From Desulfobacteraceae bacterium (GTDB lineage: Bacteria; Desulfobacterota; DSM-4660; Desulfatiglandales; B25-G16): a stretch of DNA of 64,000 nucleotides. The translations under genes and the position numbers were made by a program. Where the stretch lies: NCBI GenBank assembly GCA_030615105.1, contig JAUWZV010000001.1, forward strand, positions 1,399 through 65,398, given 5' to 3'. Of the stretch, positions 5,862 through 40,249 are shown piece after piece; position 1 is the stretch's first letter, and every line of letters begins with the position of its first letter. The notes under the pieces were generated by a model that saw only the letters and a program-made list of their open reading frames with translations, did no database searches and was not told where the DNA came from.

Positions 5862-7289
5862 TCAGTTTTGTGGATATAATTTTTTAAAAATCCTTACTGC
5901 CAATTCTTTACTTCCACGAATCTTTTTTAATTTTCCATAGGCTTTTAGGGCTTCGTCTCTTTTTTCTTGCTTTAAATAAAGATTACATGCTTTGTAAAGA
6001 TAATCTATGGCATTATATGGTTGTCCTTGTTTAAGATAGTGATCTGCAAGATATTCGTAGAACACAATCTCATCAGGGAGTTTCTTGATAGCTACTTTAA
6101 CATCATTAATATATTGTCTTAATATAAAATTCGACCAGTTAACTTCATACCATGATTCATAAAGACTGAATAGAGCTAAATAAGAAAGTTCATCTATAAC
6201 CCCTGTTTCTTCCATGATTTCTTTAATTGCAAAAACTCCCTTACCGAATTCTTTAGATTTTTCAAATAGATTCATAATAGACCAATAATAACCCCCTGCC
6301 ATCCCACAATCATCACATGATGCAATTGCTTTTTTATAATAATAAATTGCATCATCTATCTTTTCTTGCTTTGCATACATGTCGCCTATATCATGATATA
6401 TGAAATCTTCCCTTACTCCCATTTCCTTAAGGGTGTCTTTTATTGAATCGTTTTTATCAATTAATTTTAAGGCAATATCATAATAGTCTATTGCTTGTTT
6501 AAAGTTGTTCTTATAGGTATGAATCCTACCTAATCCACAGCAAGCACTAATTATTAAATGATTTCTTTTTGCTTTTTCAAAAATGAATTCATACAACCTT
6601 AATGCCTCATCATAAAGTTTCTTTTTAAAAAAATCATTACTTTCAGTCATTCCCTCAAATAAAATATTTCTGGCACAAACACTGTAATAATCAAGCACTG
6701 ACTCCCATTCGGCAGGAACTAACCGCCTATGAGGTTTTTCAATATATTTTTCAACAATCTTTATCATTTCCCAGGCATTTGGAATCCTGGCTTCGATCTT
6801 ACAGCATTTGGAACACTCATAAGGGGTAGGGAGAGTATAAATTGCATCGATAAAATTTATATAGGCTGAATCAAATTTACCTTCTACATAATCTTTCTTT
6901 CCTGCTTGCAGATATTTGTCGTATTTCACCTGCTCAGGCAATAAAGCCATAAGGTCAAAATGGACATGGAGGACACCATTTTTTGCCGAACTGCAAATGA
7001 TTTCTGAATCGTAATACCCGTCCTTTTTGACTTGATAACACCGAGGTTGCGTTTGCAGCCCAGAGATAGAAGTGGAATACGGAGTTTTAAATGAAGTCTC
7101 TACCGATTTATCTTGAGATATCCACTCATAGATATCTGCCCCTTGTGGATTGGAATTGACGACCACCTTGGTAGTACGCTTTTTAATAGCGCTTTCCTGA
7201 ATAGTACTTTCCTTAATAGCGCCTGTGCAACCTGAAATGAAAAGCATCATTAAGATAAACAGAAAAACGGTTTTTTTGTTATCATGCAA
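5862..7289 (-). CDS. PEGA-domain / TPR-repeat lipoprotein
   Basis: Track ORF 5862..7367. A TTG at 7289 preceded by GGAGG (7294-7298) gives MHDNKKTVFLFILMMLFISGC, a lipoprotein signal peptide with lipobox. There is a PEGA-like NSNPQGADIY motif and several TPR-like repeats. Confidence 0.7.
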   Translation of the reverse strand: MHDNKKTVFLFILMMLFISGCTGAIKESTIQESAIKKRTTKVVVNSNPQGADIYEWISQDKSVETSFKTPYSTSISGLQTQPRCYQVKKDGYYDSEIICSSAKNGVLHVHFDLMALLPEQVKYDKYLQAGKKDYVEGKFDSAYINFIDAIYTLPTPYECSKCCKIEARIPNAWEMIKIVEKYIEKPHRRLVPAEWESVLDYYSVCARNILFEGMTESNDFFKKKLYDEALRLYEFIFEKAKRNHLIISACCGLGRIHTYKNNFKQAIDYYDIALKLIDKNDSIKDTLKEMGVREDFIYHDIGDMYAKQEKIDDAIYYYKKAIASCDDCGMAGGYYWSIMNLFEKSKEFGKGVFAIKEIMEETGVIDELSYLALFSLYESWYEVNWSNFILRQYINDVKVAIKKLPDEIVFYEYLADHYLKQGQPYNAIDYLYKACNLYLKQEKRDEALKAYGKLKKIRGSKELAVRIFKKLYPQN

Positions 7290-7931: not shown

Positions 7932-9128
7932 ATGGCTATCTTAGCAGAATGTCCAAAATGCCACAGAAAGCAGACCACAAGGAATAAGCTTTGTGCTTGT
8001 GGTGCAGACTTGGACAAATTAAAGAGATCTAAAAAGGTCAGGTATTGGATTAACTATCGACTACCAGGTGGCAAACAGCGCAGGGAGCTTGTTACTATGC
8101 AAGGCAATCCAGATGCTTGCTGCTCCATTGAAATAGCCAGGGATGCAGACGGTAAAAGGAGAGTACAGAAAAGAGAGAACCGGATATTTGACATCAAACC
8201 GGAAACCAAAATGACCTTTAACGAGCTTACAGAGTGGTACCTGGGCCTTGAGAAAGTTAAATCTCTTGCATCTTATTCCATATTGCAAGGCTACCTTAAG
8301 AAATTCAATTCAGAATTTGGAAACAAGATTGTAGGTCAGATTAAACCCGCTGACTTAGAAAATCTTCAGGCGAAGCGTAAGAAGGAAGGTTGTGCCGATG
8401 CTACCGTTGATCAGGAAATAGGCAAGGTCAGGGCTATGATCTTTAAAGCGTTTGATAATGATATTGTGGGAGGTGATACTATCAAGGCATTCAAGAGAGT
8501 CAAAAAACTACTTAAAGGAAATGCAAACGCACGGGATAAGATACTTTCTAAAGATCAGTTTAATAAGCTTTTAGAGTCTTCTTCCAGGCACCTTAAAGGG
8601 ATTCTTGCTACTGGCTATTATACCGGCATGAGAAAAGGCGAAATTCTAAATCTTACCTGGAATAAGCTTGATCTAAAAAATCGGCTTATTCAACTTGAGG
8701 CAGAAGATACTAAGGATAAAGAGCCGAGAAATATCCCTATCTGTGATGATCTATATGAGATATTGAGCGCCATACCAAGGGCAATATATGACCCCCATGT
8801 GTTTCTCTATAATGGTAAACCCATTAGAGATATTAGAACTGCTTTGAGAAAGGCCTGTAAACAAGCAGGTATACTCTACAGTCGATTTGCTAAGGATGGT
8901 TTTATATTTCACGATCTTCGCCACTGTTTCAATACAAATATGAGAAAAGCAGGGATCCCTGAATCTGTGATTATGCAGGTTACTGGCCATTCAACCAGGG
9001 AGATGTTCGACCGATATAACACAATTGACCTTAAGGATACCCAGCAGGCTATTAATCAGTTACAAAATTTTTTGAATGTTGACCATTCTGTTGACCAAGC
9101 GGCCCAAAATGACAAAAATAAGGATTAG
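7932..9128 (+). CDS. tyrosine recombinase / phage-type integrase with N-terminal zinc ribbon
   Basis: CPKCHRK...CACG at the N-terminus. Catalytic pattern: TGMRKGEIL (R), HDLRHCF (HxxR), GHSTREMFDRYNT (H..Y). It ends 32 nt from the tRNA 3' end. Confidence 0.9.
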   Translation: MAILAECPKCHRKQTTRNKLCACGADLDKLKRSKKVRYWINYRLPGGKQRRELVTMQGNPDACCSIEIARDADGKRRVQKRENRIFDIKPETKMTFNELTEWYLGLEKVKSLASYSILQGYLKKFNSEFGNKIVGQIKPADLENLQAKRKKEGCADATVDQEIGKVRAMIFKAFDNDIVGGDTIKAFKRVKKLLKGNANARDKILSKDQFNKLLESSSRHLKGILATGYYTGMRKGEILNLTWNKLDLKNRLIQLEAEDTKDKEPRNIPICDDLYEILSAIPRAIYDPHVFLYNGKPIRDIRTALRKACKQAGILYSRFAKDGFIFHDLRHCFNTNMRKAGIPESVIMQVTGHSTREMFDRYNTIDLKDTQQAINQLQNFLNVDHSVDQAAQNDKNKD

Positions 9129-9159
9129 CAGAAAATCCGCTAACCCTTAAACAGTCTTA

Positions 9160-9246
9160 TGGTGCCGAAGGCGGGACTTGAACCCGCACGGGCATAACCC
9201 ACTACCCCCTCAAGATAGCGTGTCTACCAGATTCCACCACTTCGGC
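9160..9246 (-). tRNA. tRNA-Leu (anticodon GAG), CCA encoded
   Basis: The reverse complement GCCGAAGTGGTGGAATCTGGTAGACACGCTATCTTGAGGGGGTAGTGGGTTATGCCCGTGCGGGTTCAAGTCCCGCCTTCGGCACCA folds as a class II cloverleaf. Anticodon stem CTATC/GGTAG, loop TTGAGGG, long variable arm, T-loop GGTTCAAGTCC. Confidence 0.9.
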
Positions 9247-9954: not shown

Positions 9955-10217
9955 TATAATGAGACCTTTACATAATTCACATTTTCTTAACGAGGATGGG
10001 CTTTTCTTCAGTTCCGAGGCTCCCGGGCTGGTCTTTTCAGCAACTTATCTACGGGGGAGTTTTGCCCCCTCCGCATTGCCCCGACATGTCGGGGCCTGCG
10101 GTTTCCCCCACTGATAAGTCGCGAAAAGACAGCGCCCTACCGCCAGTTACTTCAGAAAAGCCCACCCTCTTTTTTAGGGTGACAAAAATTGTCAGATTTT
10201 GCAAAGGTCTCATAATA
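9955..10217 (+). repeat. diverged third copy (core only) of the 291-bp rod-hairpin element, nested in an outer inverted repeat
   Basis: 10001-10163 aligns by eye (about 85 percent) with the centre of 16504-16794. The outer inverted repeat is ATGAGACCTTT (9958-9968) / AAAGGTCTCAT (10203-10213). Confidence 0.6.
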
Positions 10218-15220: not shown

Positions 15221-16024
15221 TCAATCTGCACTATTAATAAAAAACCCCTCTATAAAATTTTCTCGTGAAAACTGGCCTTCGGTAAATTCTTTGAGAGAGG
15301 TCTCTTCACCGAAGAGTTTAGAAGCGATTTCTTTCGAGCTCATGCCTGATTTTTTAAGGTTGTGAACCCGGTCTTTGATTTTCTCAAAATAGGCAATGGT
15401 TCGCCTTAACACATCCGAACCATCGCTGTATATCCTCCCAGAAGAGGTTATCAAAAACTCAGGTTGAAGAGTTAGCATCTTTTTCAAGGCCTTTACAACC
15501 AGTCTATTATCCTCATCCTTTCGCGCCGAATTGGGCTTTTCCATAAAGAATTCGTCCCCTGTAAATAACCATCCTCTCTCCCTCAAGAGAAAAACCACAT
15601 GATCCCCTGAGTGCCCGGAGGTGTTAACTATTTGAAGGGGGTAATGGGTGGTGTGGATTTTATCACCCAGGGGATTGACCAAGCAAAGCTCGGGACAGCC
15701 CCAAAGCTGCTCCTGATAAGAAAAAATATCCTGTTTACGAGCAATAATGGGTAGGGATTCTTGGGGTGCAAAAACAGGGATTTTCAGTCTTTCCATAATT
15801 ACTTTGTTGCCACCTATATGATCCACGTGATGATGGGTATTGACTGCCATGGAAATGTTTTGATTTGCCAAGTAATCAACCAGTTCCCTCCGGGTATTAT
15901 GGCATCCAGTATCTATCAGAAGTCCATCTATCAAATAGGCGGCCACGCTAAAGACAACCCGGCCATTTACCTCGGTGCCCATCATGATTCGAGTAATATC
16001 CTTATATCTTTTGACCTCAAACAT
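15221..16024 (-). CDS. MBL-fold metallo-hydrolase
   Basis: HHHVDHIGG (HxHxDH) zinc motif and downstream His/Asp ligands. Confidence 0.8.
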   Translation of the reverse strand: MFEVKRYKDITRIMMGTEVNGRVVFSVAAYLIDGLLIDTGCHNTRRELVDYLANQNISMAVNTHHHVDHIGGNKVIMERLKIPVFAPQESLPIIARKQDIFSYQEQLWGCPELCLVNPLGDKIHTTHYPLQIVNTSGHSGDHVVFLLRERGWLFTGDEFFMEKPNSARKDEDNRLVVKALKKMLTLQPEFLITSSGRIYSDGSDVLRRTIAYFEKIKDRVHNLKKSGMSSKEIASKLFGEETSLKEFTEGQFSRENFIEGFFINSAD

Positions 16025-16311: not shown

Positions 16312-16503
16312 ATGCATACTACGAATCACAAAAAGTTAAAAGCAGAAATTGAAAATTATAGGATTAATGGAAAAAATATTTTCGAATCAAGGATGGATAA
16401 TGCATTTTCTATGCTCAAATTCAAAACACAGCTGAATCGAACCAAAACCAAGAAGAAAGATGGGGTATCATGCGGCGCATCTGCTGTTTATATTGATCTC
16501 TTG
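16312..16503 (+). pseudogene. possible N-terminal fragment of a DDE (IS4/IS1634-like) transposase
   Basis: FSMLKFKTQLNRTKTKKKDGVS resembles N-termini of IS4-type transposases, recalled from memory. It is cut off after about 64 codons by the 291-bp repeat. Confidence 0.3.
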
Positions 16504-16794
16504 CCTATCAACAATCGGCAGAGGACCCCGGGCGTAAGCCCGGGGGTGAATGCCTTAATGAGCACAACCTTGATGTCTTTTCTTACGTTCCAAGGCTCCC
16601 GGCCTGGTCTTTTCAACGACTTATCTGCAAGGGAGTTTTGCCCCCTCCGCATTCCCCCGACAAGTCGGGGGCTGCGGTTTCCCCCGCTGATAAGTCGTGA
16701 AAAGGACGGCGGCTTCTCACCAGTCACTCAGAAAAAACATCAAGGCCTGCCCTTGTCTCCAAGTGCCACGGGCGTAAGCCCGTGGGTATCTACT
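16504..16794 (+). repeat. 291-bp rod-hairpin repeat, copy 1
   Basis: Identical to 36748-37038 except for 7 substitutions and no indels (manual comparison). It contains two 8-bp hairpins with GTAA loops (16526-16545, 16766-16785) and a long central self-complementary region. Confidence 0.85.
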
Positions 16795-17088
16795 TTGAAG
16801 ATTAATAATATTCACAGTTTTTGCCTGAGACATTAGTATCATTAGTCTATCAGGCAAGAAATATGCCTTTTACAGGTTCAAACAGGGCGCATACCGATAG
16901 CATTCATTTATGAAAGCCTTTCATTTGTAATTAAAGAAAGATTATAAAAAAATAATAAAAAAAACTTGACAAGAAGGAAATAATAGGTGAATTTACAGTC
17001 TAAAATTAAACTGCTGGCCGGTAGATTAGTAATATTATACTGAAATGTCTACGGCATTCGAAAAAATTTTACGGCAGAAAGCTGCCAT

Positions 17089-17736
17089 ATGAAAATGGGA
17101 AAAAAATTAAACAGTCAGCCAGTTTATCATTCTCATAAAGTATCAAGTAAAAAGAACAGAAAAACTCAAATACTTGAAGCTGCCGCTTTGGTCTTCAAAA
17201 AAAAAGGTTATGATAGGGCCACTCTTCAAGACATTGTCAGCATTGTAGGCATAACCAAGGCGGCTCTCTATCATTACTTTCAAAACAAACATGAGCTGTT
17301 TTATACAATTATTCACACCATGATGATAAGGGGCATCGATGAGCTGACTAAAATTTTCGGAATGCCTATTTCGGCAGAAGAAAAGATCTGTCTTGCCTTC
17401 AAACAACACTTTTCCTCCTATGAATCTCATTTCCCTGAATTTTTGGTACTGCTTCATGAAAAGACCAATTTACTGCCTCCAAAAATGGAGAAACAAATCA
17501 AACAAGAATTTAAGCAGTATATGTCTTTTTGGGAGCAATTTATAAGGGAAGGAGTTGCAACAGGGCATTTTAGGCAAGATTTAGATCCAAAGATCATGAC
17601 TTGGTCGGCCATCGGGATGTGCAATTGGGTTTATAAATGGGCTTCCCCAAAAGGAAGGCTCAAATTCAATCAGATTGCTGAGATTTTTACCAGCATTTTT
17701 TTGGTAGGGATCCGGCATCGAGAAAAGGTCGGATAG
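17089..17736 (+). CDS. TetR/AcrR-family transcriptional regulator
   Basis: ILEAAALVFKKKGYDRATLQDIVSIVGITKAALYHYFQNKHELF is the TetR N-terminal HTH. Confidence 0.85.
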   Translation: MKMGKKLNSQPVYHSHKVSSKKNRKTQILEAAALVFKKKGYDRATLQDIVSIVGITKAALYHYFQNKHELFYTIIHTMMIRGIDELTKIFGMPISAEEKICLAFKQHFSSYESHFPEFLVLLHEKTNLLPPKMEKQIKQEFKQYMSFWEQFIREGVATGHFRQDLDPKIMTWSAIGMCNWVYKWASPKGRLKFNQIAEIFTSIFLVGIRHREKVG

Positions 17737-17961: not shown

Positions 17962-19119
17962 ATGGATTTCTCATTAAGTGAAGAACAGGAGATCTTACGT
18001 AATTCAATAAGGAAATTCCTGGAAAAGGAATATCCTAAAGAATACATTAGGAGAATCGATAAAGAAGAAGAATATCCTTTGGAGATCGTTCAAAAGATGG
18101 CCGAGTTGGGATGGCTTGGTCTTTCAATTCCAGAGAAATATGGAGGGGTTGGGGGTGACATTCTTGATCAGACTCTGATGATTGAAGAACTGGCTCGGTG
18201 TTCATCATCCATCGCTATAGCTTACTTGCTCAATATTTGTTTTGGTGCCAAGACCATCATTTACATGGGTAGCGAGAAGCAGAAAAAAAAATATTTACCT
18301 AAAATAGCCTCCGGTGATCTGATATTTTGTCTGGGCCTGACAGAGCCCAGCGGCGGAACAGATGCCCTCTCCTTGTCCACTCGAGCTGTAAGAAATGGTG
18401 ACCATTATGTAATCAATGGACAGAAGGTATTTATCACTGGGGCTCACGTATCTCACTACATAATTCTTGTGGCTAGGACGGGTCCCAAAAAGAAAAAACT
18501 AACACGAAATATTGGCATTTTTTTAGTGGATAGCAAGTCAAAAGGGATCAATATCCGTCTGCTTGATAAGCTCGGAAATAAAGCAACTGGAACCTGTGAA
18601 ATATTTTTAGAGGATGTGGTCGTTCCAGCCGAAAACATACTAGGTGATGAACGAAATGGTTGGTATCAAATCGTTAACACTCTTAATAACGAGAGGATTT
18701 CAGTAGCCGCTATTTGCTTAGGAACGACCCAGGCAGTTATCGATGAATCTTTGAAATATGTCTTGGAGCGAAAGGCATTTGGCAAGCCCATAGGTCAGTT
18801 TCAATATATTCAGAAATATATTGTCGATATGGTGATGGATCTGGAGGCCTCCCGGTTACTTACTTACAAGGCCGCCTGGCTTGAATCTCAAGGCAAAAAT
18901 TGCAATATTGAAGCTGCCATAGCCAAATTGGTGGCATCAGAGGCCTGTTTTAAAGCAACCACGAACGGAATGCGCATTTTCGCCGGATATGGGTACATGA
19001 TGGAATATGACATGCAGAGACTGTGGCGTGATTCTGAACTTTGGATCTTTGCCCCCATATCAAATGAAATGTCACGCAACCTTTTAGCGCAAGAATTGGG
19101 ACTCCCCAGATCTTATTGA
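17962..19119 (+). CDS. acyl-CoA dehydrogenase
   Basis: 385 aa. GLTEPSGGTDA and a typical ACAD three-domain pattern, with a C-terminal helical domain containing the catalytic-region motif YGYMMEYDMQRLWRD. Confidence 0.9.
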   Translation: MDFSLSEEQEILRNSIRKFLEKEYPKEYIRRIDKEEEYPLEIVQKMAELGWLGLSIPEKYGGVGGDILDQTLMIEELARCSSSIAIAYLLNICFGAKTIIYMGSEKQKKKYLPKIASGDLIFCLGLTEPSGGTDALSLSTRAVRNGDHYVINGQKVFITGAHVSHYIILVARTGPKKKKLTRNIGIFLVDSKSKGINIRLLDKLGNKATGTCEIFLEDVVVPAENILGDERNGWYQIVNTLNNERISVAAICLGTTQAVIDESLKYVLERKAFGKPIGQFQYIQKYIVDMVMDLEASRLLTYKAAWLESQGKNCNIEAAIAKLVASEACFKATTNGMRIFAGYGYMMEYDMQRLWRDSELWIFAPISNEMSRNLLAQELGLPRSY

Positions 19120-19246
19120 TCAAGTAATGTGGTCTCATGGAGCAGGCTGGGGTATGTATAAATCAAACATCATACGGTTTTCTGGTGGCAGAAAACCGGG
19201 GAAAGGGTAGTTTTTAAAACATTAATCACCATTGTGGGTATAAAAT

Positions 19247-20386
19247 ATGGGCAAGAGAGTAGCGATTGTTGATACGGTTCAGACCGAACACGGAGACAAA
19301 CTTGAGGACAATATCCGGGAGATCATGTTTGGCGTTGTCAGACAGCTCCTGGATCGTGTGGGAATTGAGAAATCCGAAATCGGGACCATGGTTTCAGCCT
19401 CCTCTGATTATTGGGAGGGGATCAGTTGCTCCAACGCCTATTATTATGATGCTGCGGGTGCCAATCTGAAGAGCGGTTCCAACGCGGAAGAGGACTCGGG
19501 TCTCGCCTTTATCTATGGTTTTATGCGAATTCTCTCGGGGGACTATAAAACCGCGTTGGTCATCAGTATAACGAAATGTTCGGAGACCCCCTCAGCGGCC
19601 ACTCTAACACACATGAGTGCGGACCCTTTTTTTCACCGGCCGGTCGGGCTAAATGAAACGGTGGTTGCAGGTCTTCAGGCAAGGGAATATATGAACCGCT
19701 ATGGCATCACAGAAGAAGACCTGGCCATGGTGGTGGTAAAAAATCTCGGAAACGCCCAAAAAAATCCATATGCACATAGGGGTGGGCAACTGTCTGAGGA
19801 AGAGGTCTTGGCTTCATCCATGATGGTCTATCCCTTGCGAGAAATGGATATCCCCTCCACCTCTGATGGTGCCTGCGCAGTTTTATTGGCCGAGGAAAAG
19901 ATTGCCAGGGATCTGACCGATACACCGATATTTGTTGAGGGCGTGGGCTGGGGTACTGATCATTCCTTTTTGGGAGATCGAAATCTTTTAAATGGATCCT
20001 TGCCAAAAGCGGCTGAGAGGGCCTATCAGATGGCTGGGGTAAAAGATCCTTCCAACGAGATAGACATGGCCGAAATCTGCGATATAACCTCCTTTCATGA
20101 GATCTTATGGATGGAGCAATTGGGTTTTTGCCCCCCAGGAAAGGGAGCAGATCTTGTCAAAGACGGCGTAACAGCTATGCATGGCAAACTTCCGGTGAAC
20201 CCTTCCGGAGGTTTGTTTGGGGCCAATCCCTATGTTGCCCGCGGTCTGATCCGGATTGCTGAGGCCGCTATGCAGCTAAAGGGAGAGGCGGGAGATCGTC
20301 AGGTGCTGGACGTGAGCAGGGCGGTTGCCCAAAGCGTTCACGGGTTGGGCGGTCAATTACATTCTGTCATTATTCTTGGAACATAG
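19247..20386 (+). CDS. SCP-x-type thiolase-like protein lacking the nucleophilic Cys
   Basis: Thiolase-like throughout (VNPSGGL, HGLGG). Where the paralog has ATCGSTG, this protein reads NAEEDSGLAF. Confidence 0.8.
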   Translation: MGKRVAIVDTVQTEHGDKLEDNIREIMFGVVRQLLDRVGIEKSEIGTMVSASSDYWEGISCSNAYYYDAAGANLKSGSNAEEDSGLAFIYGFMRILSGDYKTALVISITKCSETPSAATLTHMSADPFFHRPVGLNETVVAGLQAREYMNRYGITEEDLAMVVVKNLGNAQKNPYAHRGGQLSEEEVLASSMMVYPLREMDIPSTSDGACAVLLAEEKIARDLTDTPIFVEGVGWGTDHSFLGDRNLLNGSLPKAAERAYQMAGVKDPSNEIDMAEICDITSFHEILWMEQLGFCPPGKGADLVKDGVTAMHGKLPVNPSGGLFGANPYVARGLIRIAEAAMQLKGEAGDRQVLDVSRAVAQSVHGLGGQLHSVIILGT

Positions 20387-20398
20387 GGAGAATTTGGT

Positions 20399-21565
20399 AT
20401 GGGTCACGCAGTAGCCATTATCGGTACGGGTCAGACTCACTGTGGAAAAAGAACGGATGTTTCCTATCCTGAATTGATTTATGAGGCAGTAAGTAGGGCC
20501 TTTGAGGATTCCGGGCTGAGTCCGGATGATATTGAGGCCGTTGTGTCAGGCTCGATGCCTCCTGCCATGGAAGGTGTCAATAACCCCCACCTTTATTGGG
20601 CCGATGCCATGGGTGCCGGAGGAAAACCTCTCATAAGGATTGCGACCTGTGGTTCTACCGGCATATCGCTGGCTCATGCCGGTTTTTATCATGTGTCCTC
20701 AGGGCTTTTCGATCTGGTCCTGGTGGTGGGGGCAGAAAAGATGTATGAGGGAAACCCACAGGGGGTCATGGCCACTGTGGCAGATCCATTCTTTCAGAGG
20801 CCATTTTTGGCCGGTGCACCTGGGATCTTTGCACTTCAATCCAACGAATGGGCTCACCGTTATGGCCTTGAAGAGAAACGGGTGCGAATGGCTGCTGCCG
20901 AGTTATCAGTGCGAAACCATACGGATGCCCTGGATAATCCCTATGCTCACATTAAGGTTAAGATTGCTGTCGAGGATGTTCTTAAATCCCGTGTCATTGC
21001 TTATCCAGTCAGGATTCTGGATGTGTGCCCGGCCTCAGATGGTGCCTGCGCGGTTATCATGGCCTCGGAAAGAATGGTCAGAAAAATGGGGGCGAAGCCA
21101 GCCTGGATTCGTGGGGTAGGTTACTGTGGCGAAGAGGCATTTTTTGGTGAGGGAGACAAAGTGGTCTGGCAGGCTGCCATCAATGCGGCCAAAACAGCTT
21201 ACAAGCAGGCAGGCATAACAGATCCACGGAAAGAAATAGATGTGGCTGAGGTGTATAACCCTTTCACATTTCAGGAAATGCTTTTTTATGAGTGCTTTGG
21301 TTTTTGTGATTTTGGCCAGGCCTGCGAGCTTGTGGAGAAAGGGGTTGTTATGAGAGGAGGTGATCTCCCTTGCGATCCTTCCGGAGGTGTGCTTTGCACC
21401 AATCCCATCGGTGCAACCGGTTTACAGAGGGCCGCTGAGATCGCACTTCAGGTAACCAACAAGGCGGGTGACCATCAGATTCCCGGAGCAAGTACGGGAC
21501 TGACACATGCCATGGGAGGCCTTGATCAATTTAATGGGATTATGATCATTTCAAATTCATTATAG
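20399..21565 (+). CDS. SCP-x-type thiolase-like protein (Cys present)
   Basis: IRIATCGSTGISLAHA...VVGAEKM and CDPSGGV. It has CTNPIGATG where thiolases usually have GHPxGA(T/S)G. Confidence 0.8.
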   Translation: MGHAVAIIGTGQTHCGKRTDVSYPELIYEAVSRAFEDSGLSPDDIEAVVSGSMPPAMEGVNNPHLYWADAMGAGGKPLIRIATCGSTGISLAHAGFYHVSSGLFDLVLVVGAEKMYEGNPQGVMATVADPFFQRPFLAGAPGIFALQSNEWAHRYGLEEKRVRMAAAELSVRNHTDALDNPYAHIKVKIAVEDVLKSRVIAYPVRILDVCPASDGACAVIMASERMVRKMGAKPAWIRGVGYCGEEAFFGEGDKVVWQAAINAAKTAYKQAGITDPRKEIDVAEVYNPFTFQEMLFYECFGFCDFGQACELVEKGVVMRGGDLPCDPSGGVLCTNPIGATGLQRAAEIALQVTNKAGDHQIPGASTGLTHAMGGLDQFNGIMIISNSL

Positions 21566-22120: not shown

Positions 22121-23746
22121 ATGGTTAAGAAAGAGAGCAGATCTACCATTTCTGGGATTTCTCAGAAAATTTTCTACCCACGGGCAGACATTGTCCACAC
22201 AATGACTGAAGGGAAAGAGGAGAAACCAGGGGAATTTCCTTTCACTCGAGGAATTTTCCCCCAGGGCTACCGTCAACAGCCATGGATGGAGAGTTTGGCG
22301 AGCGGCTATGGATTACCTGAAAAAACCAACGAGCGGGAGAAGTACTTGTCTAAGGTCGGACAGGCGGGATACGGTGGCCGAGCGTCTATCAACCTGGTCT
22401 TTGATAGGCCTACGTTCTGCGGCATGGACAGTGATCATCCCATGGCTCAGAACGAATTGGGCGAGGTTGGTGTGATCATTGATTCCCTGATGGACATGGA
22501 GCGACTTTTTAAGGGCTTCCCCTTGGACAGATTGAACGTAGGTTTTATTGCTGACCGCTCAGGCCCTATCATTATGGCCATGTATGTGGCCCTTGCTGAC
22601 AAGCTTGGTATCTCTAGGCATAAGTTGAGGGGGATTGTCTGCAACAATCCTTTGACAGACTTCTACTGCAGCAAGACCCCGATGTTTCCACTCCGAGAGT
22701 GCCTTCGTCTGATGGTGGATTGCATCAAGTTTTGTACTGAAGAGGTGCCCAATTTCAACATTGCTCGAATTGGAGGTTACAACACCAGGGAACTGGGCAG
22801 TACTGCGATTCAGGAGATCGGTTTTAACTTAGCCATTGCAAAAACCATTGTGGAGGCCTGTGTAGAGGAAGGACTGAGTGTTGACAAATTTGCGGGCAAC
22901 ATCAGCTTTCAGTTTTCCCAGGGGAGCTACTTTTTCGAGGAGATTGCCAAGATACGCGCGGCGCGAAGGATTTGGGCCAAATTGCTGAAAGAAGGATTTG
23001 GTGCAGAGAAAGACTCTATTTGTCGGATGAAGATCCACATGCAGACTGCTGGCTCCAGCCTCACAGCACAGGAGCCCCTTAACAACATTGCTCGCATTGC
23101 GCTTCAGGTTTTGTCTGCGAGCCTCTCCGGCTGCCAGAGTATGCATATTGCCTCCTTTGATGAAGCCCTTGGCATTCCTACCGAAGAAGCTGCTAGTGTG
23201 GCTATCAAAACCTCCAAGATCGTGATGCACGAGACAGGAATAACAGATGTAGCTGACCCATTAGGTGGTTCCTATTATATGGAGGCTCTGACAGAGGAAA
23301 TTGAGAAGAGGATTGTGAAACTTATGGAGCGTATCGACGAACTTGGAGGAGCGATTAAGGCAATTGAGGAGGGGGTTTTCGAACAAGAGATTGCCGATGC
23401 CAGTTACTTGCTTCAAAAAGAGATATCTGAGGGCAAACGAGTTATCGTGGGGATGAATCGTTTTCAGGAGAAAGACCAGAAGCTGGAGTATAAGGTCTTT
23501 AGGCCCGATCCGAAGGTATCCAGCATAGCTATAGATCGTGTGAGGAAACTGAGGGAAGAGAGGGATCAGGAGCGGGCGGAAAAATGTATTGAACAAATTA
23601 GAGAAGCAGCGCGAAGAAATGAGGCACTAATGCCCCTCTATATCGAAGCTGCTAAGTCCAATGTCACGCTTGGGGAGATGATTAGAGCCCTGGAAGAGGG
23701 ACTGGGTACATTCCAATATTCGCCGATTATCTCCAGGGTTGAATAA
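22121..23746 (+). CDS. B12-dependent acyl-CoA mutase large (substrate-binding) subunit, paralog 1
   Basis: FPFTRGIFP, FFEEIAKIRAARRIWAKL, HMQTAGSSLTAQEPLNNIARIALQ, DEALGIPTEEA and DPLGGSYYMEALT are methylmalonyl-CoA-mutase family blocks. Confidence 0.85.
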   Translation: MVKKESRSTISGISQKIFYPRADIVHTMTEGKEEKPGEFPFTRGIFPQGYRQQPWMESLASGYGLPEKTNEREKYLSKVGQAGYGGRASINLVFDRPTFCGMDSDHPMAQNELGEVGVIIDSLMDMERLFKGFPLDRLNVGFIADRSGPIIMAMYVALADKLGISRHKLRGIVCNNPLTDFYCSKTPMFPLRECLRLMVDCIKFCTEEVPNFNIARIGGYNTRELGSTAIQEIGFNLAIAKTIVEACVEEGLSVDKFAGNISFQFSQGSYFFEEIAKIRAARRIWAKLLKEGFGAEKDSICRMKIHMQTAGSSLTAQEPLNNIARIALQVLSASLSGCQSMHIASFDEALGIPTEEAASVAIKTSKIVMHETGITDVADPLGGSYYMEALTEEIEKRIVKLMERIDELGGAIKAIEEGVFEQEIADASYLLQKEISEGKRVIVGMNRFQEKDQKLEYKVFRPDPKVSSIAIDRVRKLREERDQERAEKCIEQIREAARRNEALMPLYIEAAKSNVTLGEMIRALEEGLGTFQYSPIISRVE

Positions 23747-24171: not shown

Positions 24172-24413
24172 ATTGTTATTTGAAATGAGGTTGTTCGCAC
24201 TATGTATGCTATACCCGATCTCTGAAACGAAAGCTCTAAGATCTTAGGGCATCATTGGAAGATATCTCCGTTTTGCGTAGGGATGAATAGCATAGTTGTT
24301 GAGGGATATGGGGGAATGATTCTCTCGACACGCGAGATAGTCCCTTCTTTGATGCCCCGGCCTTTGGTTGGGGAGTGATAGTGGGAAGCGAGCTTAAGGG
24401 AGGAGGAAGTATC

Positions 24414-26114
24414 ATGTTTGAAAAGGGTTTTCTAACACAGGTTAAAAAGAGAAAGACAGATTGGTTAGAGAAAAAATACTCTCAAGCGGTGGAAAGGTTT
24501 ACAGAGAGGAAAAAACGCTTCGAGACCAATGCTGGGATAGAAATCGACCCCCTTTACACACCTGATAATCTGGAAAAAGAGAATTATTTTGAAAAGATAA
24601 GTTTTCCTGGAGAATTCCCCTACACCCGGGGATCTTACCCCATAGGGTATCGCTCAAGATACTGGCAGCCTCGAGGGTATTGTGGATTTGGGACATCTGA
24701 AGAAACCAACGAAAGGCTGAAATTTGCCCTGCAACAGGGGGAGCCGGGGTTGAATGTTATTGTAGATCTGCCCACCTCCTATCATGGGATTGACGCGGAT
24801 GATCCGAGGGCCGAAGGAGAGGTTGGAAAAACCGGTGTCAGCATCAATTCCATTGAAGACATGCGGGATCTCTTTGAAGGGATTCCGATTGATAGGATTT
24901 CTATAACCTTTAATACCACCGGGTTGGTTATTATGGCTATGTACTTTGCGATGGCTCGGGAAAGAGGGGTCCCCTTTAAAAATCTTTGGGGAACTGCCCT
25001 TAATAACCCTTTAGCTTCTTACGTTTCCTGCAACTCTGCCTGCTTGCCTATCCCGGAAGATGCCCTAAGAGAATTAACAGATATCGTAGAGTTTGCTGTT
25101 AGAAACCTGCCTAAATGGAATCCTATGAACATTGGGTCCTATGAATATCGTGAAAATGGTGCCAACGCAATTCAAGAATTGGCCTTCATGTTCGGCAACG
25201 CCATGGCCTATACGGATTCTTTTATCCATAGAGGGCTGGATTTTGATGAATTCGCACCAAAATACGTTTTCTATACATCCGTTCAGACTAACTTATTTGA
25301 GGAGATAGCCAAGTTCCGTGCAGCGAGAAGAATCTGGGCAATGATCGCCCGAGATCGTTACAAAGCCAAGAATCCTGCTTCCATGATTTTCAGGATTCAC
25401 GCGCAGACCTCAGGATTCAGCATGACGGCAGAGCAACCCTTGAACAATATAGTCCGTGAGACGATTCAGAGCCTGGCAGCGGCTTTAGGTGGCACCAATT
25501 CTCTTTATACTAACTCTTATGATGAAGCCCTTTGCCTTCCCACGGAGGAGGCCCTTCGAACGGCCATGCGGGTTCAGCAGATTATTATGGAAGAGAGCGG
25601 TGTAGCCGATACCATCGATCCTTTAGGCGGTTCCTACTATGTGGAAACCCTAACAAACAAGATGGAAGAGCGGGTTTGTAGACTTATAAAGGAGATAGAT
25701 GATAGGGGAGGTATGGTTAAGGCTATTGAAAGCGGTTGGGTGCAATCTGAGTGTGAGCGCTCGATCGCCACCTATATGGACAGGGTGGAAAAAGGAGAAA
25801 TAGTTGTTGTGGGCTACAATAAATACCAGATCGATGAACCAGTACAATATGGTGTTTTTAGCGTGGATCCCAAATACGAACTCAAACAGCGAAATCGGCT
25901 GAAGAAACTGAGGGCAGAAAGGAACAAGGAAGAGGTTTCAAAGGCCCTGGATATGCTTCGGGAAGCGGCGAAGGGAAACGAAAATATGATGATTCCATGC
26001 ATGGAGGCAGCCCGCGCAAGGGCCACCTTTGGTGAGATGACAGAGGCCATTTACGGGCAAATGAGATCATTTAGAAGTCAATTTAAGGACCTGAAGATGA
26101 AGATGTATGCATAA
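24414..26114 (+). CDS. B12-dependent acyl-CoA mutase large subunit, paralog 2
   Basis: Track ORF 24375. ATG 24414 follows a GGGAGGAGGA RBS. Family blocks: FPYTRGSYP, LFEEIAKFRAARRIWAM, HAQTSGFSMTAEQPLNNIVRETIQ, DPLGGSYYVETLT. Confidence 0.85.
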   Translation: MFEKGFLTQVKKRKTDWLEKKYSQAVERFTERKKRFETNAGIEIDPLYTPDNLEKENYFEKISFPGEFPYTRGSYPIGYRSRYWQPRGYCGFGTSEETNERLKFALQQGEPGLNVIVDLPTSYHGIDADDPRAEGEVGKTGVSINSIEDMRDLFEGIPIDRISITFNTTGLVIMAMYFAMARERGVPFKNLWGTALNNPLASYVSCNSACLPIPEDALRELTDIVEFAVRNLPKWNPMNIGSYEYRENGANAIQELAFMFGNAMAYTDSFIHRGLDFDEFAPKYVFYTSVQTNLFEEIAKFRAARRIWAMIARDRYKAKNPASMIFRIHAQTSGFSMTAEQPLNNIVRETIQSLAAALGGTNSLYTNSYDEALCLPTEEALRTAMRVQQIIMEESGVADTIDPLGGSYYVETLTNKMEERVCRLIKEIDDRGGMVKAIESGWVQSECERSIATYMDRVEKGEIVVVGYNKYQIDEPVQYGVFSVDPKYELKQRNRLKKLRAERNKEEVSKALDMLREAAKGNENMMIPCMEAARARATFGEMTEAIYGQMRSFRSQFKDLKMKMYA

Positions 26115-32020: not shown

Positions 32021-32275
32021 CGAGGGAAAAGGTATCTATAAATAATCCAATCAACTTCCTGCCCACCCGGGACTTAAACCTCAACCGAGGGGTCCTGGGT
32101 AGATGCAGGGATATAGGTATAAAGATGGACCTCCTAACCGGCACTGTAATGCCAACCCCAAGGTGTTTACCACAGGTTGGCCCACAGGTTAAAATAACCG
32201 GACTTGCTGGTGGATTTAATGATTGTTCCACTATTAAGGGTTTCCATTATTATTACTATTAAGGAGGTTAATATA

Positions 32276-33964
32276 ATGTTTGATGCAGAAACCCTAAAGA
32301 AGGATTTGGAAGACCGGAAAGCCTGGGAACGGTCCTTTAAAAAGCGATACTTGAAAAGCTTTGAAAACAAAACACATTCAGGAATTCCAGTTAAATCGGT
32401 CTATTCACCTTCGGATATTCTGGATTTTGACTTAAAAAAATGTCCTTCCCCCGGGAACTATCCATACACACGGGGAATCTACCCGGCCCAATACCAGTTT
32501 CAGGCCTGGATGAACCAGCAGGTACACGGATATGGGCAGGCGGAGGATACCCGGGAGAGGATGGACATATTAGTGAAGGAGGGGATGGAAGGTTACTTTG
32601 GGAACCTGGTTTTTAATCTGGTCCTGGATCTGGTCTCACAGGCGGGATTAGACCCGGATGATCCTGAGGCACGGGGAAAGGTTGGCCAGGTGGGAGTCCA
32701 TATTAGCTGCCTGAAAGACTTGGAGATTCTTTTTGATGGTTTGCCCCTTAAAAAGGTTAATGCCAGTTTTATTGTGGGTGAACCCTCTATCTGTTTGCTG
32801 GCCATGTACATTCTATACGGAGAAGGTCGTGGTGTACCAAAGGAAAATTTAAGAGGCAACACCATGAACTACCTATTGCGGGGGTTTAATTGGGATGTGG
32901 CCATGTATCCCCCAAAGAATGCCCTCAAGATCTCGGTTGAACTGATTCGCTACTGCTCCCGTTTCATGCCCACCTGGAATACGACCAATTTAAGTGGTTA
33001 TATTATTCGGGAGGCAGGCGCCTCTGCTGTCCAGGAACTGGCATTTACCCTTGCCAAGGGAATGAATCTTATCGAGACCTGCATGGAAGCAGGCCTTAAA
33101 CCAGATGATTTTGTCCCTCGCTTTGGCTTTCAACTCGGCTTTCACAACGACTTTTTCGAAGATATTGCCAAGTACCGGGCCTTGCGCCGGATGTGGGCAA
33201 CCATTAATCACGATCGATACGGGTGCCGGAATCCTAAGTCCCTCCAGGCCAGAATTCATACCCACACCTGTGGAAGTTCACTGGTGGCCCAGCAACCCAT
33301 GAATAACATCATCCGAGCGACTCTACAGACATTTGGGGCAGTTCTTGCTGGAACCAATGCCTTGCAGACGAGCGCTTATGATGAAGCTCTTTCAATTCCA
33401 ACGGAGCAGGCAGCCACTCTTGCTCTCAGGACCCAGCAGATTATCCAGCATGAGAGTGGGGTCACAAAAGTATCCGATCCACTTGCCGGAAGCTATTATC
33501 TGGAAAGGCTGACCGACGAAATGGAAAAGAGTGCCTATAAAATTCTGGACACGATCGAAGGGATGGGAGGTTTTATCAAGGCGTACGAAACGGGCTGGCT
33601 TAGGGAGCAAATTGCCGAGGAAGCATTGAAATGGCGGCATCGATTGGATAGTGTGGAGGAGGTCATAGTAGGTTTGAATCGCTACCAGGAAGAGGGAGAA
33701 AAGGTTGAGGTGCCGCACTTTCATGTAGATGAGAAAATCGAGCAACGAGCCATTGAAAGGATCCAGGAATACCGTAAAAACAGGGATCAGGGCAAGTGCC
33801 AGGAAGCATTAAATCGCCTCCGGAAAGTGGCCGTGAAGGTGGAGCAAGGCAACCGGCATTACTTTTTAATGGAGGCTCTGATTGATGCTTACAGAGCCAA
33901 GGCTACCCTTGGTGAGACCATGTCAATCCTGAAGGAAATCTTAGGTTATGGTTATGCTTACTGA
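32276..33964 (+). CDS. B12-dependent acyl-CoA mutase large subunit, paralog 3
   Basis: Track ORF 32204. ATG 32276 follows an AAGGAGGT RBS. Family blocks: YPYTRGIYP, FFEDIAKYRALRRMWATI, HTHTCGSSLVAQQPMNNIIRATLQ, DPLAGSYYLERLT. Confidence 0.85.
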   Translation: MFDAETLKKDLEDRKAWERSFKKRYLKSFENKTHSGIPVKSVYSPSDILDFDLKKCPSPGNYPYTRGIYPAQYQFQAWMNQQVHGYGQAEDTRERMDILVKEGMEGYFGNLVFNLVLDLVSQAGLDPDDPEARGKVGQVGVHISCLKDLEILFDGLPLKKVNASFIVGEPSICLLAMYILYGEGRGVPKENLRGNTMNYLLRGFNWDVAMYPPKNALKISVELIRYCSRFMPTWNTTNLSGYIIREAGASAVQELAFTLAKGMNLIETCMEAGLKPDDFVPRFGFQLGFHNDFFEDIAKYRALRRMWATINHDRYGCRNPKSLQARIHTHTCGSSLVAQQPMNNIIRATLQTFGAVLAGTNALQTSAYDEALSIPTEQAATLALRTQQIIQHESGVTKVSDPLAGSYYLERLTDEMEKSAYKILDTIEGMGGFIKAYETGWLREQIAEEALKWRHRLDSVEEVIVGLNRYQEEGEKVEVPHFHVDEKIEQRAIERIQEYRKNRDQGKCQEALNRLRKVAVKVEQGNRHYFLMEALIDAYRAKATLGETMSILKEILGYGYAY

Positions 33965-34478: not shown

Positions 34479-35273
34479 ATGCTGGGAATCAAAAATCTCG
34501 AAATTACCTATCATGACATTATTCTGGTTATAAAAGGCATATCTTTGACAGTCAAAGATGGTAGTATGGTCGCCCTTTTAGGTGCCAATGGAGCAGGCAA
34601 AAGCACTATTCTGAAGGCGGTATCAGGGGTTCTCGAGGTCGAAGATGGCGATATTGAGGATGGAACTATTGATTTTGATGGGATTCGTCTTAATAACAAA
34701 ACCCCCCATTTCATTGTCAAAAAGGGTCTCATTCAAGTTCCAGAAGGCCGCCGTATCTTTGATGAACTCACCGTGGAAGAAAATATCCGGATTGGCTCTT
34801 TTCTGCGGAAGGATTCAAAGAAGATAAAAGAAGACTACGAAAATGTTCTGGCTTATTTCCCTTCTTTAGTCCACCTAAAGAAGCGCCTTGCCGGTTATCT
34901 TAGCGGAGGAGAACAGCAGATGCTGGCCATTGGTAGAGCCATGATGGCAAAACCACGATTGCTTATGCTCGACGAGCCGTCTCTGGGGTTGGCCCCTATA
35001 CTAGCTCATCAGGTTTTTAATAGGGTTAAGGAGTTTAATAGCAGGGAAGGGGTTTCTGTTTTGCTGGTCGAGCAAAATGCCATTATGGCCTTAGATGTGG
35101 TGGAGTATGGCTACATTATGGAAAACGGCAAAATCGTCTTGGACGGCCCAAGCCATAAACTCGTTGAAAACCCTGATATTAAGGAATTTTATTTGGGACT
35201 TACGGATGTGGGTGGGAAGAAGAGCTATCGGGATATCAAACATTACAAAAGAAGGAAGCGATGGCTTTCTTGA
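34479..35273 (+). CDS. LIV-type ABC transporter ATP-binding protein (LivF-like)
   Basis: Walker A GANGAGKST, signature LSGGEQQMLAIGRA, Walker B LLMLDEPSLGLAP. Basic C-terminal tail KHYKRRKRWLS. Confidence 0.85.
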   Translation: MLGIKNLEITYHDIILVIKGISLTVKDGSMVALLGANGAGKSTILKAVSGVLEVEDGDIEDGTIDFDGIRLNNKTPHFIVKKGLIQVPEGRRIFDELTVEENIRIGSFLRKDSKKIKEDYENVLAYFPSLVHLKKRLAGYLSGGEQQMLAIGRAMMAKPRLLMLDEPSLGLAPILAHQVFNRVKEFNSREGVSVLLVEQNAIMALDVVEYGYIMENGKIVLDGPSHKLVENPDIKEFYLGLTDVGGKKSYRDIKHYKRRKRWLS

Positions 35274-35301
35274 CCTTTTTTACAAATCCTTGGAGGTAGG
35301 G

Positions 35302-36747
35302 ATGGTCGATAATAAAGAAATTGAAAGGTTAAAGAGGACGTATGAAGCCTGGAAAGAAGAGGATTTAGAAGGGCCTATCAGGAAATACGGTGAACGGGTT
35401 GAGAGATTTGAAACAAGGTCGGAGATACCCGTTAAGCCTTTATACACGCCATTGGATATTGAAGGATTTGATTATCTGGAAAAACTCAATTTCCCGGGCA
35501 GGTATCCATTTACGCGAGGCATCTATGCAGAGGGGTACCGTACGAGGACTTGGTTCGTCCGGGGCTTGTTTGGATACGGAACGGCGGAAGAGACGAATCA
35601 GAGAATGAAATTCCTTATTCATCAAGGAGCGACTGGGCTTAACATTGTTTTTGACGCCCCCACGGGTTGGGAAGGCATAGACGCGGATAACCCATTGGCT
35701 ATGGGTGAAGTGGGTAAAAACGGGGTTTCTGTGAATACACTGAAAGATATGGAGGATATGTTCAAGGGACTCCCTGTTGAGAAATTGAATGTAACGTGGG
35801 CCTCCTGTGTTGGGGCATCAAACATACCCCTGACGGCTATGTATATTGCCATGGCCCAAAAGAGAGGTTTAGATATTTCTAAATTAAATGGGGCGGCCAT
35901 AAATGATATCTTTGTGGGATATTCCCTTAACGTCTGTTCTCTGCCTTACACCCATCCCAAAGACGCCCTAAAGGATTGGTGTGATGCAGTGGAACATGCC
36001 ATTTTGCACATGCCGAATTGGTTTCCGTGCTCCATTGCTTCTTATGAGATGGGTGAATCAGGAGCGACGCCCGTTCAACAGATCGCATTTACTATTGCTG
36101 CGGCCATCTCCTATACCAGAGCGCTTATGGAGCGAGGCCTCAAGGCAGAGCAGATTTCTCCAAAATATGCGGTTTTTCTATCCTGTGGGAATATTTTTTT
36201 AGAAGAGGTGGCCAAGTACCGTGCTCTGAGAAGAATGTGGGCCAAGACCTTCAGAGAGAAATTTGGGGTTACGTTAAAGAGAGGGCTGCAGTGCAGGATC
36301 CATACCCAGACCTCAGGATTGACCCTGAGGGCCGAGCAACCCCTAAATAATATTGTCAGAACGACATGCCAGAGTTTAGCTTCCATTTTCGGTGGAACCA
36401 ATTCCTTATACACAGACCCTTATGACGAGGTAGTGGGTCTCCCTACCGAAGAATCTCATCGTCTTGCAATGAGGACTCAACAGATCATCATAGAAGAAAC
36501 AGGGGTTGCCGATACTATCGATCCACTTGCTGGGTCCTATTACATTGAATCTCTCACGGACAAGGTGGAGGAGGAGGCCTGGAAGATAGTGGATAGGGTT
36601 GAGGAGATGGGCGGAATGCTGGAGGCTATTGAAAGACGGTATTTCCGGTCCCTGATTGATGAGTCTTACCATAGATATCTCAAAGCTGTGGAAAACAATG
36701 AAAAGGTTATTGTTGGATATAACAAATACCACCACACAGAAGAACTA
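35302..36747 (+). pseudogene. B12-dependent acyl-CoA mutase large subunit, paralog 4, C-terminally truncated
   Basis: ATG 35302 follows a GGAGGT RBS. The track ORF 35095 is a spurious upstream extension overlapping livF. Family blocks are present up to VIVGYNKYHHTEE. The last ~90 residues seen in paralogs 1-3 are replaced by the 291-bp repeat. No small subunit follows. Confidence 0.7.
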
Positions 36748-37038
36748 CCTATCAACAATCGGCAGAGGACCCCGGGCGTAAGCCCGGGGGTGAATGCCTT
36801 AATGAGCACGACCTTGATGTCTTTTCTTACGTTCCAAGGCTCCCGGCCTGGTCTTTTCAACGACTTATCTGCAGGGGAGTTTTGCCCCCTCCGCATTCCC
36901 CCGACAAGTCGGGGGCTGCGGTTTCCCCCGCTGATAAGTCGTGAAAAGGACGGCGGCCTCTCACCAGTCACTCAGAAAAAACATCAAGGCCTGCCATTGT
37001 CTCTAAGTGCCACGGGCGTAAGCCCGTGTGCATCTACT
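36748..37038 (+). repeat. 291-bp rod-hairpin repeat, copy 2
   Basis: Same orientation as 16504-16794, with 7 substitutions. It begins inside the mutase-4 reading frame. Confidence 0.85.
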
Positions 37039-37066
37039 GTCAGCGGTAAATGGTCCGTTAAAAAAA

Positions 37067-37094
37067 CAAATGACAAATGACAAATGACAAATGA
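37067..37094 (+). repeat. heptanucleotide tandem repeat (CAAATGA)x4
   Basis: Four perfect units at 37067, 37074, 37081 and 37088. They overlap the stop of the upstream ORF and the ATG (37084) of the TonB-like gene. Confidence 0.85.
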
Positions 37095-40115: not shown

Positions 40116-40249
40116 GGCCTGCCCTCCCCGTCCCGAGGCCGGTACGGGATCGGGAGGCGCGACTTGCACGGAATATGCTTCTGTAGCTGTAATATTTCAG
40201 GAGCTGAGTTCGTAAAAATCTGGCTTTACAAGTAAGGTCTGGGCCAGGG
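40116..40249 (+). repeat. GCCCTGG...CCAGGG module (family R2), copy with an internal hairpin insertion
   Basis: Starts GGCCTGCCCT and ends AGGTCTGGGCCAGGG. The interior shares CTGTAATATTTC with other copies. Confidence 0.55.

Follow-up and report, generated by a model that had tools for sequence, protein, structure and literature searches.

The window analysed here is a stretch of 64,000 nucleotides from a Desulfobacteraceae bacterium (contig JAUWZV010000001.1, positions 1,399 to 65,398 of the forward strand), and it contains three related repeats that fold into long hairpins. The question they raise is whether these repeats are mobile DNA or a structured RNA that travels with mobile DNA. The original prediction, made from the sequence alone, had left both options in view, namely a DNA hairpin like a miniature inverted-repeat transposable element (MITE) or a non-coding RNA borne by a mobile unit. 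The mobile part of this proposal stood up, because there are terminal inverted repeats (TIRs), a target site duplication (TSD) and dispersed ends resembling repetitive extragenic palindromic (REP) sequences, whereas the RNA part gained no independent support. We consider it quite probable that the three repeats belong to two kinds of small, non-autonomous mobile DNA element, both of which carry one conserved hairpin module of 165-185 bases.

The repeat search returned two copies of a 291-nt repeat, at 16504-16794 and 36748-37038, that are 98% identical. It also returned a core segment of 128 nt at 10001-10128 that is 89-90% identical to both of them, which is closer than the value of about 85% first proposed. 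All three cores lie on the + strand, in agreement with the common orientation that had been predicted. In the three-way alignment two-sided changes are visible in the basal stem and in the apical hairpin, and the 10-kb copy does keep its stems in spite of them. The hairpin sequence GGGCGTAAGCCC occurs four times in the window (16530-16541, 16770-16781, 36774-36785 and 37014-37025; 0.26 expected), in all cases where the GTAA-capped hairpins had been placed. Furthermore, the minimum free energy folds of the 291-nt unit consist of a rod and two terminal hairpins, with z-scores of -6.9 (+ strand) and -8.5 (- strand) against dinucleotide shuffles, and the fold of the 10-kb core has a z-score of -9.1. 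The rod with its long-range pairing is therefore borne out.

Two kinds of element in the window

The interval 9955-10217, which had been taken as a diverged third copy of the 291-nt unit, is something else. It corresponds almost exactly to one complete MITE of 251 bp without GTAA hairpins, and only the core is common to it and the 291-nt unit. This element, which we call type A, lies at 9961-10211 on the + strand between a left and a right TSD of ATAAT (9956-9960 and 10212-10216). Its TIRs are GAGACCTTTACATAAT at 9961-9976 and the reverse complement of GAGACCTTTGCAAAAT at 10196-10211. The rod core occupies 9987-10171 on the + strand (covariance-model match of 200.9 bits), with its conserved part at about 10001-10163. 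The same architecture is found in 33 relatives. The consensus ends of the family are GAGACCTTTGCATAAC/...CAAAGGTCTC, with the boundaries GAGACC...GGTCTC, and the end motif can be written as GAGACCTTTG(A/C)A... Among the matches listed, 12 of the 33 type-A copies have a perfect 5-bp TSD, the window copy included (the chance is about 1/1024 for each), and several more match at four of the five TSD positions. The element is small, non-coding and multi-copy; the metagenome-assembled genome (MAG) JAWOBA01 holds tens of copies with unrelated flanks. Thus, 9961-10211 is a classical TIR/TSD MITE and a different carrier of the same module.

The type-A inverted repeat is not tied to the rod. It also encloses elements of 270 bp whose cargo is unrelated and which have TSDs of their own (L030:6236-6505 and L077:4814-5084). 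Moreover, microhomology deletions (CAGCA, CTTTTT) have given rise to derivatives of 159, 125 and 83 bp. The 83-bp derivatives, from which the core is missing entirely, have 5-bp TSDs at three loci, and therefore the core is not needed for type-A mobility.

Regarding the enzyme, the same inverted repeat borders a decayed transposase fragment in locus L087 (L087:5789...; ...FDSRFDGKWVLKT...), of which 40 residues have IS1634 as their best NCBIfam match (E = 0.011, 14.8 bits against a cutoff of 100). An intact transposase was not found in L087, and a protein search with the remnant returned only the 62-aa remnant itself. IS1634-family elements make duplications of 5-6 bp, which fits the 5-bp TSD of type A. 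A DDE transposase would move the type-A MITE in trans, and the weak remnant and the 5-bp TSD suggest that it may belong to an IS1634-like family.

In the right arm of the window MITE there is also a promoter-like site that faces outward (10189-10216). It consists of TTGTCA, a 16-nt spacer and CATAAT, the latter being formed by the last base of the inverted repeat and the target duplication, and it is a consensus match only, with 10 of 12 positions.

The two 291-nt copies belong to a second kind (type B), composite units on the + strand in which a left end like those of REP and IS200/IS605 elements, the rod core and a right end follow one another. In the first unit (16504-16794; the edges defined by the family are at about 16505-16793) the left-end hairpin CCCCGGGCgtaaGCCCGGGG, with CTATCAACAATCGGCAGAGGA before it, lies at 16526-16545. 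It is followed by the rod core at 16563-16748 (188 bits) and by the right-end hairpin CCACGGGCgtaaGCCCGTGG at 16766-16785, and then comes GTATCTAC. In the second unit (36748-37038) the corresponding parts lie at 36770-36789, 36807-36992 (197.3 bits) and 37010-37029, where the right-end hairpin has 7 bp, CCACGGGCgtaaGCCCGTGT. The ends of type B can be summarized as CTATCAAnAATyGGCAGAGGA-hairpin ... hairpin-GTATCTAC, and the GTAA hairpin motif as GGCAGAGGACC..GGGCGTRAGCCC.

We scanned metagenomes with the left end of the 291-nt unit (GGCAGAGGACCNNGGGCGTRAGCCC) and obtained 94 stretches, with 50 unique and fully contained instances. More than half of these (29 of 50) were single units of ~60 nt, in which one hairpin is directly followed by GTGGGTATCTAC. 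In 11 cases the left end was joined to the right end by an AT-rich spacer of 44-47 nt, giving about 125 nt with no core, and only seven had the core between both ends; the other three had other forms. The left end of the window units is present at 67 unique metagenome sites, over which conservation starts abruptly at tCTATCAA.AATT and ends at GTGGGTATCTACT. The type-B ends thus appear as a small REP / IS200-IS605-like repeat, which usually occurs on its own and occasionally carries the core. The GTAA hairpins are therefore the ends of an independent small repeat, not an RNA-like architecture specific to the 291-nt unit.

The type-B units have subterminal GTAA hairpins at both ends and no inverted termini, and the hairpins lie at unequal distances from the two edges (about 17-22 nt on the left and 8 nt on the right; 22 and 9 nt from the edges of the 291-nt repeat in the first window unit). 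No TSD was seen, since no direct repeat is shared by the sequences on either side of the two window copies or of the single units. TCTAY is present at both edges (the unit starts tCTAT CAA... and ends ...A TCTAC T) and may be the target tetranucleotide, although it could also belong to the element itself, and the opposite strand reads GTAG, 4 nt and then the palindrome. This architecture suggests that type B may be moved as single-stranded DNA by a Y1 (HUH) transposase acting in trans, which would recognise the subterminal hairpins and TCTAY. For both types, the transposase families named here deserve much less confidence than the mobile-mosaic explanation as a whole.

The recurrent open reading frames (ORFs) near the 94 hairpin-unit matches encode a group II intron reverse transcriptase, a 117-aa protein and host proteins. 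The group II intron begins with GTGTGCC... directly 3' of the ...GGGTA(T/G)CTAC of the hairpin unit in L140, L143, L147, L161, L164, L183 and L194. Its reverse transcriptase/maturase ORF has 426 aa (e.g. L183:1600-2880), and its copies are at least 83% identical across six loci. The hairpin repeat thus looks like a homing site of this intron, as for introns that target stem-loops. In addition, L191, L168 and L175 have the same left flank and hairpin unit, and in L191 an element whose first gene is an IS3-like orfA (MSKKRKRYTPAFKAK) splits the unit at GGGTATC|. L191 compared with L168 and L175 is a filled versus empty pair for a different insertion sequence.

The rod core and its carriers

With the core 21-mer GAGTTTTGCCCCCTCCGCATT as query, a scan of 185,579 species genomes gave at least 117 stretches with at least 126 copies, many of them at contig ends. 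An anchor independent of the core could be CTGCGGNTTCCCCCNNNGATA. Among the matches listed, the hosts are about 22 MAGs, 21 of them of Desulfobacterota type (labelled Desulfatiglandales, Desulfobacteraceae, Desulfobacterales or 'Deltaproteobacteria') and one of Acidobacteriota. The sole match with the latter label among those listed is a short contig of 2.7 kb, L099 (DATKYC010000220.1), for which a binning error is likelier than a host jump.

The rod is about 165-185 nt long and imperfectly palindromic, with a closing stem of variable sequence, conserved internal loops and a variable apical hairpin. With a covariance model built on 44 non-redundant cores, the + strand of the window copies scored 188-201 bits against 27-49 bits for the - strand, and the relatives behaved alike; therefore, the rod is strongly strand-asymmetric and not a simple palindrome.

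At least six unrelated carriers have this rod at their centre. Besides carrier A (GAGACCTTTGCAT...) and carrier B, which has hairpin ends, there are at least four with inverted repeats of their own. These include carrier C (GGAGAGCAAAATATTGTTTGCAT...), carrier F (AACGTTCAAAAGTGTTTGCAT...), carriers D and E with their own outer repeats, and a further one in the complete MAG CP070657. Core identity, computed over 116 columns with the ascertained 21-mer and the apical hairpin excluded, was 0.785-0.815 between carrier types and 0.87-0.90 within a type, whereas the 60 nt upstream of the core were 0.50 identical between types, against 0.51 in the shuffled control. The rod is a passenger common to unrelated carriers.

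Within-genome concerted evolution was rejected as the cause of core conservation, since core similarity depends more on the carrier type (0.87) than on the genome (0.815 when the types differ within one MAG). The core conservation may reflect the exchange of a passenger module between repeats, or selection in the proliferating copies for a folded DNA or RNA that acts in cis.

Two loci deserve a separate mention. In CP070657.1 two inverted cores, each in its own carrier (L062:4316-4502 and 6265-6451), flank a two-gene operon of 1.76 kb in a closed MAG chromosome. We rejected this pair as transposon ends, as the genes between them are ordinary (an NAD-dependent deacetylase-like ORF and one other), with no transposase. 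In L023 (4713-4802 and downstream) a core copy ends after ...CCCCCAATGATAC and abuts the 3' part of an ORF that by eye resembles an SNF2-type helicase, which is a possible second gene fragment abutting the element.

Covariation and what the rod might be

The original prediction had proposed a covariation check and had stated that failure of such support, together with the lack of a transcript and with copies bounded by the TIRs of a known insertion sequence, would make the repeat an ordinary MITE. We used the RNAalifold structure with 44 non-redundant relatives, 500 shuffles and controls in which the pairing partners were slid. Paired cells made up 96.4% of the total, and 15 of the 37 pairs had changed on both sides (104 cells), which none of the 500 shuffles equalled; with slid partners pairing fell to 50-58%. 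The changes that preserve pairing are thus there, and since the covariation is real, the element is not shown to be an 'ordinary' MITE.

Nevertheless, processes at the DNA level can make such 'compensatory' changes in one step, as three kinds of rearrangement in the family show. In L113 an inverse copy of the right arm stands in place of the left arm. A 32-nt mini-element (TCTCCGAGCGGGAGGCTCTACGAGCCGGAGGC and variants, with tandem copies in some cases) has inserted at three fixed positions within the core, in L004, L016, L018, L023, L057, L065, L084 and others. It is often mirrored on both arms, and once it interrupts the most conserved 21-mer. Finally, L016 and L082 have a core that is inverted relative to its carrier. 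The pairing of the rod may thus be kept partly by intra-strand, arm-to-arm DNA templating, and selection on hairpin formation in proliferating master copies may contribute as well. Individual copies behave differently: among 21 type-A copies of a recent burst (mean identity of 92%), per-site diversity was 0.043-0.044 in the core and 0.032-0.046 in the outer arms, and this evenness argues that individual copies are not under purifying selection. Copies insert at many unrelated sites, and each of them then decays neutrally.

We judge it very unlikely that the rod is a functional structured RNA, either a small regulatory RNA or a guide or scaffold for a mobile-element protein, spread by the transposon carriers. 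What speaks for such an RNA is, first of all, the covariation, with the closing stem and the apical hairpin varying while pairing is kept. Besides, the internal loops and an 11-nt bulge are conserved, the covariance model is strand-specific (190 versus 30-50 bits), two + strand wobbles are near-fixed (T-G in 58 of 71 and G-T in 66 of 71), and the core is 79-82% conserved across carriers with unrelated flanks. However, the other signatures of an RNA gene that we examined were absent or neutral. The Rfam check that had been suggested gave no family: with Rfam 15 there was no match at gathering thresholds over the whole window and none at E <= 10 in two 401-nt stretches, HEARO, the IS605-orfB RNAs and 6S included, and what appeared was noise (snoRNA, miRNA and a Twister-P5 fragment). 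No recurrent partner protein emerged from all-against-all clustering of 1060 ORFs from the 117 loci listed or from Pfam scans of 139 ORFs within 900 nt of the cores, in which only generic families were found (radical SAM, PAS, TPR, ECH and response regulators).

The orientation of the cores relative to the nearest ORFs was random as well (32 same and 39 opposite upstream, 32 and 32 downstream), the four combinations being equally frequent. The left end of the window MITE yielded no promoter-like site directed into the element. Among the variable pairs on the + strand, A-C (55) exceeded G-U (17), and neither strand was singled out. Furthermore, decay is even inside and outside the core, the 32-nt elements are tolerated within the most conserved 21-mer, core-less derivatives and core-less carriers are common, and some copies have the core inverted. 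Nothing that we found shows the module working as RNA.

Two narrower roles were discarded. For a cis-regulatory or terminator role there was no orientation bias, and the promoter and terminator scans gave weak consensus matches only. For an omega RNA, a retron or another protein-linked RNA, the ORF clustering and the Pfam scans gave only generic neighbour families.

Alternatively, the rod could be a mobile or cis-acting single-stranded DNA hairpin, a site for a recombinase or an HUH enzyme comparable with integron attC or the folded CTX attP. We regard this as unlikely, and we are equally doubtful of its corollary that the rod nests preferentially in other hairpin-forming repeats, which amplify it. 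The rod is indeed central in every carrier (types A-G), keeps its asymmetry whatever the carrier, and retains pairing in a closing stem of variable sequence. The core-less type-B units with a short spacer are what core insertion there would lead one to expect, and the hairpin units are insertion hot spots (the group II intron after CTAC at seven loci, and the IS3-like element in another unit). However, no recurrent recombinase, integrase or HUH gene lies near the copies, and inspection showed no attC-like R'/R'' boxes. No pair of empty and filled sites was found for the rod alone, the 83-bp type-A forms being microhomology deletions, and nearly all the 'stand-alone' rods examined sit inside further outer inverted repeats.

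An integron attC proper was rejected by inspection (no R'/R'' boxes and no array), as were group II intron domain V, a coding function, and a sigma-54 promoter in the 21-mer, whose spacing is off by one.

The RNA and single-stranded DNA versions overlap with the explanation by non-autonomous mobile elements and are not exclusive of it. Several points weigh against that explanation. The compensatory changes are statistically strong. The strand asymmetry (about 190 bits forward and 30-50 reverse) is kept across all carriers. The mean pairwise identity is 0.87 in paired core columns, 0.76 in unpaired core columns and 0.48 outside the core; a conserved centre with variable ends is the reverse of a typical MITE, and even the unpaired core stands at 0.76 against 0.48 outside, although collection with the 21-mer fixes part of the core by ascertainment. 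The enzymes are missing too. No autonomous partner with type-A ends was recovered; the search for a transposase with the same ends, as had been proposed, gave the 40-residue remnant, on which the IS1634 link rests at E = 0.011. Likewise, no Y1 transposase, TnpA or RAYT was present among the ORFs within 1.5 kb of the 94 metagenome matches.

Conservation of the centre, asymmetry and covariation are explained no less well by a constrained structured nucleic acid than by a neutral passenger. In its full form this would make the rod a constrained, strand-specific structured RNA or folded single-stranded DNA, a hitch-hiking module or hyper-parasite of MITEs with a protein partner, to which we give only a small chance. 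The chance is just as small that at least six non-autonomous transposon scaffolds with different mechanisms, found across Desulfobacterota, captured such a module or were invaded by it.

Window genes and known systems

The two 291-nt units differ in their effects on neighbouring genes. The 16.5-kb copy has a metallo-beta-lactamase-fold gene (15221-16024, - strand) on one side and a TetR gene (17089-17736, + strand) on the other, and a 174-aa ORF that runs through it (16312-16836) has no Pfam match. The 36.7-kb copy abuts a methylmalonyl-CoA-mutase-like paralog (35095-36747, + strand). The homology of this paralog covers Pfam profile positions 2-444 of 512 and ends where the element begins, while the ORF itself reads on through the element to 37080. 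Three other mutase paralogs (22121-23746, 24375-26114 and 32204-33964) extend about 85 residues further. Each of these three paralogs is followed by a short ORF of 132-143 aa, presumably the B12-binding small subunit, and none is found behind the fourth. Both the stop of homology at 444 of 512 and the missing short ORF indicate that the fourth paralog is truncated, and it is probably a pseudogene. The mutase cluster also holds ABC-transporter genes and three ORFs of ~380 aa at 17962-21565, thiolase-like by size and position only.

These two ORFs bear on one more alternative, that the 291-nt unit is an in-frame coding insertion of the kind known from Rickettsia palindromic elements and adds a peptide of 97 residues. 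Indeed, 291 equals 3 x 97, and long ORFs (16312-16836 and 35095-37080) run through the two window copies in one and the same open frame. However, the first ORF, without a Pfam match, sits between divergent genes, and the mutase paralog breaks off at profile position 444 of 512 instead of being interrupted in frame. Moreover, copies are mostly intergenic, with nine of the 126 listed inside a long ORF, and a reading frame would not survive the 32-nt insertions and the hairpins of variable length. We find a coding insertion hardly credible, and in our view the 97-codon open frame shared by both copies is due to chance.

Other mobile or repeated sequences are present in the window. A tyrosine recombinase of the phage-integrase family (398 aa) adjoins tRNA-Leu(GAG) (9160-9246, - strand) in the region 7932-9246, upstream of secG and the MITE, and this site may be the edge of an integrated element. 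A further repeat family consists of modules of 90-300 nt upstream of + strand genes sharing ...AGGTCTGGGCCAGGG (40156-40565, 51753-51861 and 57226-57536), and another one is a GC-rich palindrome, GACCCGCCCGCCTCGCC...GGCGGGCAGGC (43413-43455, 57370-57412 and 63296-63338). Neither family has an Rfam match.

The repeats carrying the rod are worth taking into account in assembly and annotation. Since many copies lie at contig ends, the family fragments MAG assemblies; furthermore, it gives rise to spurious long ORFs, and here it flags the truncated mutase paralog of the window. Its modular, nested architecture has one conserved hairpin module common to TIR/TSD MITEs and to REP / IS200-IS605-like elements. 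The arm-to-arm templating documented here mimics RNA covariation and is a useful warning for covariation-based RNA discovery. A functional core, if confirmed, would amount to a new structured element dispersed by transposons.

No match to the family was found in plasmid and phage collections. A literature search with four diagnostic strings, of which three came from the core 21-mer and the fourth from the right-end hairpin, found none of them and no relevant description. We compared the elements with known systems. The assignments to TnpB/IscB guide RNAs and to Rickettsia palindromic elements were tested and do not fit. Like the TnpB/IscB omega RNAs (HEARO, IS605-orfB-I/II), the rod is a structured segment of ~150-250 nt by a right-end hairpin and has many copies. 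However, no TnpB or IscB gene was found beside any of the 126 listed genomic copies, Rfam gave no match, the core is also present in TIR/TSD carriers, and it ends about 17 nt (16749-16765) upstream of the right-end hairpin. Rickettsia palindromic elements are likewise palindromic repeats, which may occur in ORFs with in-frame read-through; here, in contrast, only one window copy touches a real gene, which it truncates, and most copies are intergenic.

The REP, BIME and REPIN sequences with their RAYT (TnpA_REP) transposases and the palindrome-associated transposable elements (PATEs) derived from IS200/IS605 are closer to type B. REP sequences and IS200/IS605 ends have this hairpin design, and the type-B units of ~60 nt share with them a GC-rich GTAA-capped palindrome, a GTAG head on the opposite strand (seen as ...CTAC) 4 nt from the stem, asymmetric distances from hairpin to edge, the lack of TIRs and TSDs, and mosaics with other motifs. 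They differ in that no RAYT or TnpA gene adjoins any type-B unit, and the two hairpins of the 291-nt unit are direct and not inverted, so that it is not a REPIN.

Type A, for its part, resembles the bacterial hairpin MITEs such as Correia/NEMIS of Neisseria, ERIC/IRU of enterobacteria, Nezha and Chunjie, which are small hairpin-forming elements of about 100-300 bp. The elements are alike in being small, non-coding, multi-copy and mostly intergenic, with TIRs and short TSDs, a long imperfect hairpin fold and size variants due to internal indels at fixed positions. In contrast to those families, it is the centre that is conserved here, each subfamily has different termini, hairpin-ended carriers without TSDs contain this core as well, and no autonomous partner was identified. 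The family is a mosaic of MITE-like and REP-like elements, new but of known kinds, and it is common in sulfate-reducing Desulfobacterota.

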